From NCBI GenBank assembly GCA_964016885.1, contig OZ024741.1:55366001-55430000 (forward strand): 64,000 nt of DNA, read 5' to 3'. The position numbers and the translations under genes are program-made. How positions within the stretch are numbered: the stretch's first letter is position 1; each line of letters begins with the position of its first letter. Below, one piece after another: positions 10,530 through 18,771 of the stretch. The DNA is from Eledone cirrhosa (lineage: Eukaryota). The notes beneath the pieces were generated by a model. The model had not been told where the DNA came from. It searched no databases and saw only the letters and a program-made list of their open reading frames with translations.

Positions 10530-10843
10530 CGATATATATATATATATATAAAAACGTAGTTAAGAAAGCCACAACAATGCAGAGGGAAATCTCGAGGTAG
10601 GAAGTGAAAGCTAGATAGGAAAAACAGGTGAAAGTGAAAATTGAGAGAGACAAAGATGAAAACAAAACAAAGGTAGAAGGGTTACCGTAGTGGAGATTTA
10701 ATCCCAATATTTCGGGCTCACGCCCATCAACGGGGGAAAGTTCCAAAAGGGAGGGAACAGGCCAAGCGGAGAAAGTTGTGAGCGTGAAATTAATAAACAT
10801 TTATTGTACTGCCTCTCTGTTTTGTCCCTGTTCAAATTTTTCC

Positions 10844-10848
<5 letters not shown>
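10530..10848. mobile_element. PLE-type 3'-end remnant: antisense HHR-like motif plus sense tail
   Basis: Minus strand 10703-10736 reads CCGTTGA t GGGC gtga GCCC GAAA ta TT ggg (degenerate core); tail 10780-10846 matches the reverse complement of 61205-61270. Confidence 0.55.
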
Positions 10849-10883
<35 letters not shown>

Positions 10884-11116
10884 TTAGAAACACACAGATA
10901 CATGCGGACACACACATATATACATGAATGCATCCGCACCCAACTGTGAGTTAAGGGTGCCAACTTCACCGATGTTGCTCAATGAATGACTGGGACAGAC
11001 CAATTCAGTTGAACTAGACTGAACCAGTATCAGAGTTAAAAATACATTATGAAGAGAGAAGAAACATTTAGATATAATTAGTAATAAAATGTATTATACC
11101 TAAACTGCTCCTAAAT

Positions 11117-11206
11117 TCCTCGACTACGTAGTTTCGTGGCATAAACAAAAACAATATATCATAAAGATATAGAGTCCCTGCGAGGTCTGCCGACTTATCA
11201 AGAGGA
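11117..11206 (-). ncRNA. HHR of the 595-bp unit (further copies at 11712-11801 and 12307-12396)
   Basis: Reverse complement of 12704-12793. Confidence 0.75.
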
Positions 11207-12703
11207 TACCTCATTTTACTAGTCTCAAGAACGCGTCTACACGACGTGAGAAAGAATCCCAAAAGGCGGAGGGGGAGATAGTCACGCGATATAACGGTCG
11301 AGAAACAGAGCTAAGCCTCTTATAACCCCGAAGAAAATACCACGGAGGCGGAGGGGGTATTTATATCGAGGCCGCAGAAGAGGTGGTGAAGAAGGCGAGA
11401 AGTATGAGTAATGGAAGCTTTCCAGCTGTCCCCACACTTCAAAGATTGCTCGACCAGAGGGAGTTATTAACAATATATTTAGAAACACACAGATACATGC
11501 GGACACACACATATATACATGAATGCATCCGCACCCAACTGTGAGTTAAGGGTGCCAACTTCACCGATGTTTCTCAATGAATGACTGGGACAGACCAATT
11601 CAGTTGAACTAGACTGAACCAGTATCAGAGTTAAAAATACATTATGAAGAGAGAAGAAACATTTAGATATAATTAGTAATAAAATGTATCATACCTAAAC
11701 TGCTCCTAAATTCCTCGACTACGTAGTTTCGTGGCATAAACAAAAACAATATATCATAAAGATATAGAGTCCCTGCGAGGTCTGCCGACTTATCAAGAGG
11801 ATACCTCATTTTACTAGTCTCAAGAACGCGTCTACACGACGTGAGAAAGAATCCCAAAAGGCGGAGGGGGAGATAGTCACGCGATATAACGGTCGAGAAA
11901 CAGAGCTAAGCCTCTTATAACCCCGAAGAAAATACCACGGAGGCGGAGGGGGTATTTATATCGAGGCCGCAGAAGAGGTGGTGAAGAAGGCGAGAAGTAT
12001 GAGTAATGGAAGCTTTCCAGCTGTCCCCACACTTCAAAGATTGCTCGACCAGAGGGAGTTATTAACAATATATTTAGAAACACACAGATACATGCGGACA
12101 CACACATATATACATGAATGCATCCGCACCCAACTGTGAGTTAAGGGTGCCAACTTCACCGATGTTGCTCAATGAATGACTGGGACAGACCAATTCAGTT
12201 GAACTAGACTGAACCAGTATCAGAGTTAAAAATACATTATGAAGAGAGAAGAAACATTTAGATATAATTAGTAATAAAATGTATCATACCTAAACTGCTC
12301 CTAAATTCCTCGACTACGTAGTTTCGTGGCATAAACAAAAACAATATATCATAAAGATATAGAGTCCCTGCGAGGTCTGCCGACTTATCAAGAGGATACC
12401 TCATTTTACTAGTCTCAAGAACGCGTCACAACGACGTGAGAAAGAATCCCAAAAGGCGGAGGGGGAGATAGTCACGCGATATAACGGTCGAGAAACAGAG
12501 CTAAGCCTCTTATAACCCCGAAGAAAATACCACTGCGGCCTCGATATAAATACCCCCTCCGCCTCCGTGGTATTTTCTTCGGGGTTATAAGAGGCTTAGC
12601 TCTGTTTCTCGACCGTTATATCGCGTGACTATCTCCCCCTCCGCCTTTTGGGATTCTTTCTCACGTCGTGTAGACGCGTTCTTGAGACTAGTAAAATGAG
12701 GTA

Positions 12704-12793
12704 TCCTCTTGATAAGTCGGCAGACCTCGCAGGGACTCTATATCTTTATGATATATTGTTTTTGTTTATGCCACGAAACTACGTAGTCGAGGA
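12704..12793 (+). ncRNA. Type I hammerhead ribozyme, U3-A8 core variant with extended stem II
   Basis: tcctc TTGATAA gtcggca...tgccac GAAA ctacgtag TC gagga; stem I TCCTC/GAGGA; stem III is the palindrome ACTACGTAGT. Confidence 0.78.
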
Positions 12794-12865
12794 ATTTAGG
12801 AGCAGTTTAGGTATGATACATTTTATTTCTAATTATATCTAAATGTTTCTTCTCTCTTCATAATG

Positions 12866-12927
<62 letters not shown>

Positions 12928-15656: not shown

Positions 15657-16595
15657 CGACAGCAGCAGCAAATGTGCCGCCGCCACCACTACCACCATCA
15701 ACACTATCAGTAGAAGCACCAACAACGACAGCAGCAGCAAGTGTGCCACCACCACCAACACCATCAACACTATCAGTAGAAGCACCAACAACGACAGCAG
15801 CAGCAAATGTGCCGCCACCACTACCACCATCAACACTATCAGTAGAAGCACCAACAACGACAGCAGCAGCAAGTGTGCCACCACCACCAACACCATCAAC
15901 ACTATCAGTAGAAGCACCAACAACGACAGCAGCAGCAAATGTGCCGCCACCACTACCACCATCAACACTATCAGTAGAAGCACCAACAACGACAGCAGCA
16001 GCAAGTGTGCCACCACCACCACCAACACCATCAACACTATCAGTAGAAGCACCAACAACGGCAGCAGCAGCAAATGTGCCACCACCACTACCACCATCAA
16101 CACTATCAGTAGAAGCACCAACAACGACAGCAGCAGCAAGTGTGCCGCCGCCACCACTACCACCATCAACACTATCAGTAGAAGCACCAACAACGACAGC
16201 AGCAGCAAGTGTGCCGCCACCACCACCAACACCATCAACACTATCAGTAGAAGCATCACCAATAACAACAGCACCACTATCACCAACACCACCATCACCC
16301 CCTCACAATACCACCAATAACAACAGCACCACTATCACCAACACCACCATCACCCCCTCGCAATACCACCAATAACAACAGCACCACTATCACCAACACC
16401 ACCATCACCCCCTCGCAATACCACCAATAACAACAGCACCACCATCACCCTCTCGCAATACCACCAATAACAACAGCACCACTATCACCAACACCACCAT
16501 CACCCCCTCGCAATACCACCAATAACAACAGCACCACTATCACCAACACCACCATCACCCCCTCACAATACCACCAATAACAACAGCACCACTAT
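15657..16595. repeat. Compound CAC/CAG-rich minisatellite (63-69-bp units, then ~60-bp units)
   Basis: About 9 copies of ACAGCAGCAGCAA.TGTGCC...CACTATCAGTAGAAGCACCAACAACG, then CAATACCACCAATAACAACAGCACCACTATCACC... units. Confidence 0.9.
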
Positions 16596-17096: not shown

Positions 17097-17344
17097 CCAT
17101 GGATATACATGCCTACATGTGAAAGGGTGCATTATTTATGGAAGGAAGAGAGCAGGTCCTGGTGACCTTTTTTGGACCTCCCAACTGAAGGATGTTTAAA
17201 CAAGACTGGGAACCCTCTACCTGTCTTAGACTCTGTATATTTAATATTTTCAGATATAACCTTTAAAATTTCACCGCTCTCAGAACCTACACCTCCAGGA
17301 TCATCACAAACTCCACCAACAAATCCTAAAATAAAACTCTCTCC

Positions 17345-17422
<78 letters not shown>

Positions 17423-17505
17423 TGGTCTCTTTCTCTCTCTATCTATCTATCTTTCTATATATCTCTCTTGCTCTATCTATCTATCTATCTATCTATCTTT
17501 GTCTC

Positions 17506-18771
17506 GGTTTGCAACTCGGCACGTGGAGGGGCAGACCGATGCCCTCCGATGGCGTCGTCGGACGCTGGACGGAGGGCCCGGTGAAGTTGCTCGGGGTCTG
17601 GTTCGGACCGGACCTCCAGGTGGAGAAAAACTGGGCGGAGGTTACGAACAGGGTGTTTGCACTGACCCAGAAGTCGGCCAGTTGCAAACTATCCCTGAAA
17701 GGTCGGGCGGAGGTGGCGAACACCTACATAGCGTCCGTCATCTACTACCGCCTGACCGTAGTGCCCTGCCCAAGGGAAACCCTCACCAAGATGGAGCGCG
17801 CGCTCTTCCAATTCCTTTGGCAGAGGCGGACTCCTATAGTGAGGAGATCAATCTGCTGTCAACACCCTTCGAAAGGAGGGCTGGGGATGCCGTGGCTAAT
17901 GATGCGTAAACTCGCATTAAGGCTACGGCACCTCTACGTATTCCTCACCGGACAACCGGTGTGGGCCTCGTTTGTGAAACGAACCTTTCCCAGACTCGTC
18001 TCACTCACCGAGCTGCAATCCTGGGTCAAGCAAAGACCGAGAAAACTGGGCGCCTGGCACACTGAGTGTGCCCAGGCGCTCACCGCCCTCTGGCAGGCGG
18101 ATCCGGTTATCAGTGGAGACTCCACCGCAACATTCTATAGAGGGCTGGTACGCAGCAGGTGCGACGACGCCCTCGGAGAAGCCCTAGACATGGAGGAGGA
18201 CGAACTGGCCAGCCTGTTCGGTAGGACATTCAGCCCGGGACCTATGGACAACTTCCAGAAGTCCCTGGCCTGGCAGTGCTACCGAGGGGCTTTACCCGTT
18301 CGAGAAAGGCTCTACAAACACGGGCGCCCGGGTAGGGACCCCGCCAAAAAGATCTGTCCCAGATGCGTGTGCGACGAGGAAACCGTTGCACACGCATTGG
18401 TACACTGCTCGGGCGTAGCCGATCTGTGGGGCTATGTCGAACAACTGCTGTCAAGGGTGGGACCGATCCGGTTGACCACCGAGTCTATTGTAATGATCAA
18501 GCCGCCTCCCCCCTTCAAAGATGAAGCAGAGGAGGTGTTTCTGTGCGTAATAGCCATGGCGAAAGAGGTTGTATGGTGGACGCGTCTGAAAGGACTGAGG
18601 TCAGGCACCTTTCTCTCTGGCCAACAACTGGTCCGTTTCTTCCGATATCATTTCGGAAGAAGGATCAGGATGGAGAGAGAGGTGCTGCACCCCAGCCGTT
18701 TCTATGAAAGATGGGTGAAAGTGGCGAGAATGGCCCGTGTGAATGGGCCTTCACTCTACATCAGACTATAG
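17506..18771 (+). CDS. Tx1-like ORF2 C-terminal portion (RT thumb region and zf-RVT), partial
   Basis: VKLLGVWFG...LSLKGRAEVAN...FLW...GGLGMP...W....ALP....CPRC...ETVAHALVHC; stop-free for ~420 codons. The annotated N-terminus from 17422 is translated microsatellite. Confidence 0.85.
   Translation, partial: GLQLGTWRGRPMPSDGVVGRWTEGPVKLLGVWFGPDLQVEKNWAEVTNRVFALTQKSASCKLSLKGRAEVANTYIASVIYYRLTVVPCPRETLTKMERALFQFLWQRRTPIVRRSICCQHPSKGGLGMPWLMMRKLALRLRHLYVFLTGQPVWASFVKRTFPRLVSLTELQSWVKQRPRKLGAWHTECAQALTALWQADPVISGDSTATFYRGLVRSRCDDALGEALDMEEDELASLFGRTFSPGPMDNFQKSLAWQCYRGALPVRERLYKHGRPGRDPAKKICPRCVCDEETVAHALVHCSGVADLWGYVEQLLSRVGPIRLTTESIVMIKPPPPFKDEAEEVFLCVIAMAKEVVWWTRLKGLRSGTFLSGQQLVRFFRYHFGRRIRMEREVLHPSRFYERWVKVARMARVNGPSLYIRL

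Follow-up and report, generated by a model that had tools for sequence, protein, structure and literature searches.

Cervera and de la Pena (2020, PMC7229834) proposed that the tandem units of animal retrozymes are formed when the reverse transcriptase (RT) of a Penelope-like element (PLE) copies a circular RNA into tandem cDNA. Li, Clavereau and Pollet (2026, bioRxiv 10.64898/2026.07.22.740005) give a range of 51–972 bp for the retrozyme unit, and their definition does not demand a canonical hammerhead core but includes minimal models. The same report describes in vitro tests in Xenopus, in which one of nine retrozyme dimers was cleaved.

In vitro studies of the Poseidon PLE of Anolis (Frangieh et al. 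2024, PMC11167929) revealed that its RT starts at two internal sites which bracket the genomic tail. Both DNA strands are cut and extended, the targets are AT-rich, and the protein is predicted to form a dimer. The hammerhead is dispensable in this system, RNA that has not been processed serves as the predominant substrate, and RNA-seq reads ending at the hammerhead cut were not found. Non-autonomous, multicopy head-to-tail derivatives of PLEs are also known (e.g., MRC1; PMC8557442; PMC3846280). Hammerheads with a U3-A8 core have been described in the Cercyon PLEs of Schistosoma (Cervera and de la Pena 2014, PMC4209133), and the minimal hammerheads of PLEs cleave weakly according to the same authors.

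The window considered here is a 64-kb stretch (64,000 nucleotides) of contig OZ024741.1 from Eledone cirrhosa. A sequence-only reading had described a tandem of 2.8 near-identical units followed by an inverted partial copy, and this layout is confirmed. Indeed, 10877-12533 is a seamless tandem of 595-bp units (2.8 units) read on the minus strand, in which the mismatches between neighbouring units are confined to 10977/11572, 11095 and 12428-12430. The inverted arm, at 12533-12868, overlaps the tandem by 1 nt and is 99% complementary to it. The reverse complement of 11473-12067 defines phases 1-595 of the unit; the outer ends of the insertion lie at phase 1 (10877) and phase 431 (12868), each fused to (TA)n. 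The features of the locus (10846-12924) are the following, A and B being the two fixed 3' ends of the family:

10846..10876, no strand: (TA)n target tract, left flank
10877..12533, minus strand: arm 1, made of 2.8 tandem units; truncated 5' at phase ~130, fixed end B at 10877 (phase 595+1)
10878..11041, minus strand: terminal "tail", phases 432-595, ~165 nt, at the end of arm 1 only
11118..11205, minus strand: type I hammerhead with U3-A8 core; cleavage predicted between 11122 and 11121
11713..11800, minus strand: type I hammerhead; cleavage predicted between 11717 and 11716
12308..12395, minus strand: type I hammerhead; cleavage predicted between 12312 and 12311
12533..12868, plus strand: arm 2, inverted 0.56 unit, from phase 96 (truncated 5') to fixed end A (phase 431)
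12545..12550, plus strand: TATAAA, weak promoter candidate
12553..12563, plus strand: GC box 1, CCCCCTCCGCC, candidate promoter element, kept in the 74%-identical older family
12635..12645, plus strand: GC box 2, CCCCCTCCGCC, candidate promoter element, kept in the older family
12705..12792, plus strand: type I hammerhead of the inverted arm, U3-A8 core, predicted GUC cut after 12788
12869..12924, no strand: target tract of the right flank, (TA)n followed by (TG)n

On its left, the insertion adjoins a separate high-copy repeat (10533-10845) which lies between (TA)n tracts and is deeply covered in run X1; its minus strand carries a GNRA-capped hairpin followed by GAAA, which resembles a degenerate hammerhead. 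Elsewhere the window contains a 21/42-bp satellite at its start (1-2654), a GC-richer 66-bp tandem with open frames and without Pfam match (15657-16273), and a stop-to-stop frame of 478 aa that matches zf-RVT weakly and is likely the 3' part of a LINE (17335-18771). A 22-kb satellite of 33-bp units (665 copies, 33247-55185) has long stop-free frames on the minus strand, with Pfam matches of the kind typical of repeats.

The 3.4 units of the insertion carry four type I hammerheads, one per unit, and the predicted GUC cut after 12788 is located where the sequence-only reading had placed it (after phase 351 in unit numbering). The motif consists of helix I, a U3-A8 core, a helix II with a long hairpin extension and a palindromic helix III. 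The core is thus a variant, and differs from the canonical C3-G8 type of coral, mussel and axolotl, in which loops 1 and 2 are in contact. A search of the unit against Rfam did not return the hammerhead family, either at the gathering score or at E<=10. No variation is seen in helices I and III or in the core among subfamilies that are 74% identical overall, 95.5% of the cells being paired, and the covariation count of the hammerhead (4 distinct rows) is not above the shuffle control. The unit has a GC content of 42%, and its predicted circular fold is more stable, relative to shuffled sequences, on the ribozyme strand (z of -7.6, 25 shuffles) than on the antisense strand (z of -2.3).

The earlier claim that the unit has no ORF also stands. 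The longest ATG ORF, of 76 aa, was rejected as a gene: its length is equalled in 17% of 300 shuffles, and it is missing from the older family. No RT or GIY-YIG ORF is present in the unit and no ORF is attached to any sampled copy. The internal promoter suggested by the same reading fared less evenly. TATAAA was rejected as a conserved promoter (it reads TATGAA in the commoner 591-bp subfamily and CATAAA in the older family), but the doubled GC boxes are conserved in the older family and are candidate promoter elements. The 595-nt unit, which had been thought unusually large for a circle, falls inside the published range of 51–972 bp, although it lies above a range of 150–450 bp that has also been published.

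The insertion at 10877-12868 is one copy of a young, very abundant non-coding family. A similarity search of the 3.0-Gb genome of the same species gave 1,733 candidates, of which 38 were scored and nearly all are 98-100% identical. The 3' half of the hammerhead has 5,045 exact matches genome-wide (0 for the control). The first 100 matches listed of these 5,045 correspond to 46 loci over 62 Mb, all of which were analysed; they form the unselected set, and extrapolation from it gives a family size of about 2,200-2,300 loci. Another 35 loci were picked as best matches, which brings the total to 81 distinct loci. Nine duplicate loci were dropped, as were a locally duplicated pair (L039), a fragment of the older family (in L073) and, at the 5' side of L018 and L066, 110 nt that resemble a microsatellite; indel-prone phases were masked.

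In the unselected set, 14 of the 46 loci belong to a 595-bp subfamily and 32 to a 591-bp subfamily; copies of these young subfamilies differ by 0.6-0.7% from their own majority. A gapped-pattern count of 3,006 mostly reflects the 591-bp subfamily, because the pattern is too short for the 595-bp one. The older family has a unit of 590 bp which is 74% identical to the young unit (1,819 candidates). At four loci (L212, L233, L238 and L073), intermediate subfamilies link the older 590-bp family to the young subfamilies, which suggests a long-lived non-coding lineage.

The insertions have their 3' ends at two fixed sites, which are separated by about 165 nt (the length of the 165-170-nt tail): site A is 80 nt past the predicted cut, and site B is 244-249 nt past it. 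Among the 46 unselected loci, 24 are single-armed and end at A (15) or at B (9). The other 22 are two-armed: 20 combine A and B, none is A+A or B+B, and two have a damaged end. When all 81 loci are considered, 42 of the 46 two-armed insertions are A+B, one is A+A and three are of other types; the same 42/46 bear the layout typical of PLEs, with a partial tandem, an inverted 5'-truncated copy and a tail at one end. Similarly, 12 of 14 two-armed loci of the older family are A+B, one is B+B and one is B+other, the query having demanded a B-bearing arm. Ends at A or B run into (TA)n in 122 of 124 cases, and no 3' end falls in a better TA-like stretch inside the unit (phase 548-556). Loose ends in (TA)n are also seen at the two sites, 12068 and 12232, in independent contigs assembled from short reads (run X1).

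The 5' ends are distributed differently: they spread round the unit (chi-square p of 0.18, unselected set). An impression from the selected set, that they cluster at the ribozyme cut, was rejected, as only 1/68 does so in the unselected set. Arms extend over 0.1-4.9 turns, the longest having 4.9 units; in 14/81 loci each of the two arms is longer than one unit. Overlaps at the inversion junctions are mostly of 0-10 nt. Twin priming of the L1 type on one linear unit was rejected, because both arms can exceed one unit; moreover, the start of an arm is unrelated to the end of the other arm. The view that the outer ends fall at different phases, each at a TA-rich site fused to (TA)n, thus needs amendment: the phases do differ and the ends are fused to (TA)n, but they are two sites fixed genome-wide and not any TA-rich site, and correspond to the tail and paired start sites known from PLEs (PMC11167929). 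Mapping of the ends in the sampled loci, in line with a check that had been put forward, found free phases at the 5' side but fixed 3' ends at A and B. The fixed 3' termini leave the interpretation as a circle standing, because the 5' ends are free and the arms are several units long.

Sequence variants within single insertions bear on the nature of the template. At sites covered by at least two passes, 101 variant events are common to all passes, 119 are found in a single pass and 6 are partial. Among the sampled loci, 26 shared variants are private to one locus (18 loci). When the two arms of an insertion are compared, 48 of 81 variant sites are common to both, against 4.2 expected from random arms; the other 33 differ between arms and are mostly single-pass changes. 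The subfamily is concordant between arms in 27 of the 27 scorable loci.

On the ribozyme strand, the shared variants comprise 24 A>G sites versus 5 T>C sites (p of 1e-6), whereas the singletons are unbiased (12 A>G versus 14 T>C; 3 versus 7 in the unselected set). The excess of shared A>G is also seen in the unselected set (22 versus 5, or 17 versus 5 when five sites of doubtful polarity are removed) and at shared sites with at least three passes (14 versus 0). A 5' G precedes 1/24 of the A>G sites and a 3' G follows 9/24 (p of about 0.03 for each), neighbours which we take to lean to the ADAR pattern. The clearest single example is L060, a two-armed insertion with several A>G changes of the tail hairpins that are common to all of its 8 passes. 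In every pass of the copy at 10877-12868, phases 98 and 295 are occupied by G, where the majority of its subfamily has A; the two variants are recurrent and may be those of a lineage. The predicted cut site is crossed in 202 passes with no indel. Taken at the level of sequence, the shared, A>G-biased variants point to one edited monomer that would have been copied repeatedly, and this monomer was most likely a circle. The variants could also reflect earlier or occasional monomer bottlenecks, instead of one per event.

A search of the genome for GIY-YIG domains returned 10,597 candidates, of which 150 were scored. ORFs of 636-1,096 aa that combine an RT with a GIY-YIG domain at the C terminus are present elsewhere in the genome, and their Cys-rich linker fits the Neptune clade, as named by Craig et al. 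2021 (PMC8557442). Several of these elements bear U3-A8 hammerheads. One of them, P1, is an autonomous 4.7-kb RT + GIY-YIG element with a U3-A8 hammerhead and fixed ends about 76 and 142 nt past its cut, in (TA)n. Its two-armed copies combine the two ends (A'+B') in 8 of the 8 loci where both were seen (21 examined), in agreement with the known features of PLE insertions and with the two internal starts of the PLE RT in vitro (PMC11167929). At least 40 copies of P1 (L121, L161-L210) have a 5' terminal repeat which continues into the body of the element, and they are about 97% identical. P1 has a 66-nt tail and a coding region usually split over two frames, and is a candidate for in vitro work. 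End fragments of P1 adjoin 595/591 copies at L003, L008, L029, L032, L047, L052 and L084, and the two elements pile into shared (TA)n tracts. Several further repeat families that carry hammerheads and end in (TA)n are present in the flanks of sampled loci (L126, L139, L142, L143, L141, L159 and L160).

The unit has no similarity to the terminal repeat of P1 (score of 22, shuffled mean of 25), and its comparison with 50 GIY-YIG loci, from the 150 scored of 10,597 candidates, gave only short matches at chance level. No coding element with an equal helix III was found among 30 of 52 variant matches examined, which all belong to the non-coding lineage. A resident Neptune-type PLE presumably supplies the enzyme to the 595-bp element.

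These data favor, with a probability of about 70%, a mechanism in which the RT/endonuclease of a Neptune-type PLE cleaved the two strands of a TA tract and, from both ends, rolled round a circular, A-to-I-edited 595-nt monomer. A tandem copy would be transcribed, with the GC boxes as candidate promoter, and successive hammerheads would release a monomer, probably acting as a dimeric ribozyme via the palindromic helix III. The monomer would then be ligated into a circle, and this highly paired RNA would acquire A-to-I edits, as the strand-specific A>G excess suggests. A PLE protein would nick both strands of (TA)n and prime internally, at site A for one DNA end and at site B for the other; the fixed ends and the A+B pairing are observed, the enzyme is presumed. 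A circle has no 3' end, but it could be primed because the RT initiates internally. Each cDNA would run for the observed 0.1-4.9 turns, crossing the ribozyme site seamlessly, and the two truncated cDNAs would be joined head to head through the short microhomology seen at the junctions, by a presumed repair route. Alternatively, one arm would be lost and its partner's 5' end would join (TA)n. The sequence-only reading had suggested a retrozyme-like circle that PLE machinery copies from one side of a (TA)n break and then from the opposite side, and it finds independent support in the mapping of the ends, the sharing of haplotypes and the A>G bias.

The same enzyme could instead have worked on an uncut, linear, multimeric read-through transcript, primings at A and B giving the two arms and monomer bottlenecks being only occasional. 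The A+B rule alone does not demand a circle; it is also obeyed by the autonomous 4.7-kb element P1. A multimeric template would moreover agree with the in vitro preference of the PLE RT for unprocessed RNA and with the model of Frangieh et al., based on a multi-copy mRNA (PMC11167929), and 119 variants are singletons. However, an edited linear multimer would leave A>G changes in single units, where no excess is observed, and the presence of the changes in all units is what a monomer copied repeatedly would leave. Arms of 4.9 units, and the 14/81 loci in which both arms exceed one unit, would require many long and uniform donors that all differ in haplotype (26 private shared variants in 18 loci). 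This explanation is unlikely. A slightly less probable one is that the template was a monomer cut by the ribozyme but held end to end, so that the RT jumped from its 5' end to its own 3' end with no covalent circle. In coral, mussel and axolotl, linear monomers occur alongside circles (PMC7229834), and such a template explains the sharing of haplotypes and edits equally well. The absence of indels in the 202 passes over the cut favors a covalent circle over end-to-end jumps, and 5' truncations lie at the cut in only 1/68 cases. Template jumps of non-LTR RTs usually leave ragged joints.

It is very improbable that ordinary PLE terminal-repeat fragments, or a satellite, were amplified and homogenised as DNA, by slippage, unequal exchange or gene conversion. 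Li et al. discuss local tandem amplification of units derived from pLTRs (bioRxiv 10.64898/2026.07.22.740005), and one local duplication was observed in the present family (L039), but such processes do not yield an A>G excess on one strand, arms that end at A or B after fractional numbers of units, or a lineage of subfamilies without a coding parent. As for an artefact of assembly or long-read fold-back, no read or contig was seen across 10877-12868, four sequencing runs (contigs, kind unrecorded) yielding none. The chance of such an artefact is nevertheless minimal: the flanks are not mirrored, equal ends recur at dozens of loci, the copies differ by point changes, and the short-read contigs of run X1 show both (TA)n loose ends independently. 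In run X4, one 620-nt contig over 11265-11889 covers a full 591-type unit plus an overlap, in the manner of a circular unitig; tandem DNA would give an equal assembly, and the kind of run is unrecorded.

It is conceivable, though doubtful at present, that the retrotransposition of animal PLEs in general runs on RNA circles made by hammerheads, a dimeric RT/endonuclease priming both ends of the break at two fixed sites of one circle and rolling round it. If so, this would explain the pseudo-LTRs, the partial tandems, the head-to-head inversions and the one-sided tail, for P1 and the 595-bp element alike, and A-to-I edits would be a main source of heritable change in such elements. The questions concerned are how retrozyme tandems form, what role the hammerhead plays in PLEs, and why PLE inserts are inverted and have a one-sided tail. 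The family offers countable evidence for rolling reverse transcription (the A+B rule, one haplotype per insertion, A>G marks and a seamless cut site), and its two named start sites make the model testable in the existing in vitro PLE assay.

Like the animal non-LTR retrozymes of PMC7229834 and bioRxiv 10.64898/2026.07.22.740005, the 595-bp element is made of tandem units that are non-coding and each carry a type I hammerhead, and it has a GC content below 50%, a predicted circle that is strongly self-paired, and PLEs in the same genome. It differs by its U3-A8 core and its dispersed, two-armed (TA)n inserts, where the described retrozymes have a canonical C3-G8 core and long arrays. No pLTR homologous to the 595-bp unit was found in the comparisons with P1, with the 50 GIY-YIG loci and with the 30 of 52 helix III variant matches.

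PLE insertions (PMC8557442; PMC3846280) likewise combine a tandem with a head-to-head inversion, have a tail at one end, target (TA)n and show no discernible target-site duplication. They carry an RT-EN ORF and a tail of 30-40 nt, in contrast to the 595-bp element, which has no such ORF and a tail of 165-170 nt. To account for inversions, an antisense template was considered by Arkhipova et al. 2013 (PMC3846280); in the present family the A>G bias points to a template of the sense strand. The two internal start sites, the extension of both strands and the AT-rich targets of the Poseidon PLE agree with what is proposed for the 595-bp element. However, its starts are adjacent and without strand preference, while the putative starts of the 595-bp element are 165 nt apart, with one per arm and a monomer-like template. 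The Cercyon hammerheads have the same U3-A8 covariation and a small palindromic helix III suited to dimeric cleavage; the 595-bp unit differs from them by its long helix II extension, and by the location of the motif in an independent non-coding unit.

A literature search, thin on subscription journals, found no report of edit sharing between retrozyme units or of a per-arm A+B rule. Judged from its sequence, the 595-bp element is a new family of animal non-LTR retrozyme, with predicted cleavage, putative circularity and a presumed partner enzyme. Both the type of element and the circRNA step proposed for it were known; what the family would add is genomic evidence for that step, in the form of two fixed ends and of edits shared between units.
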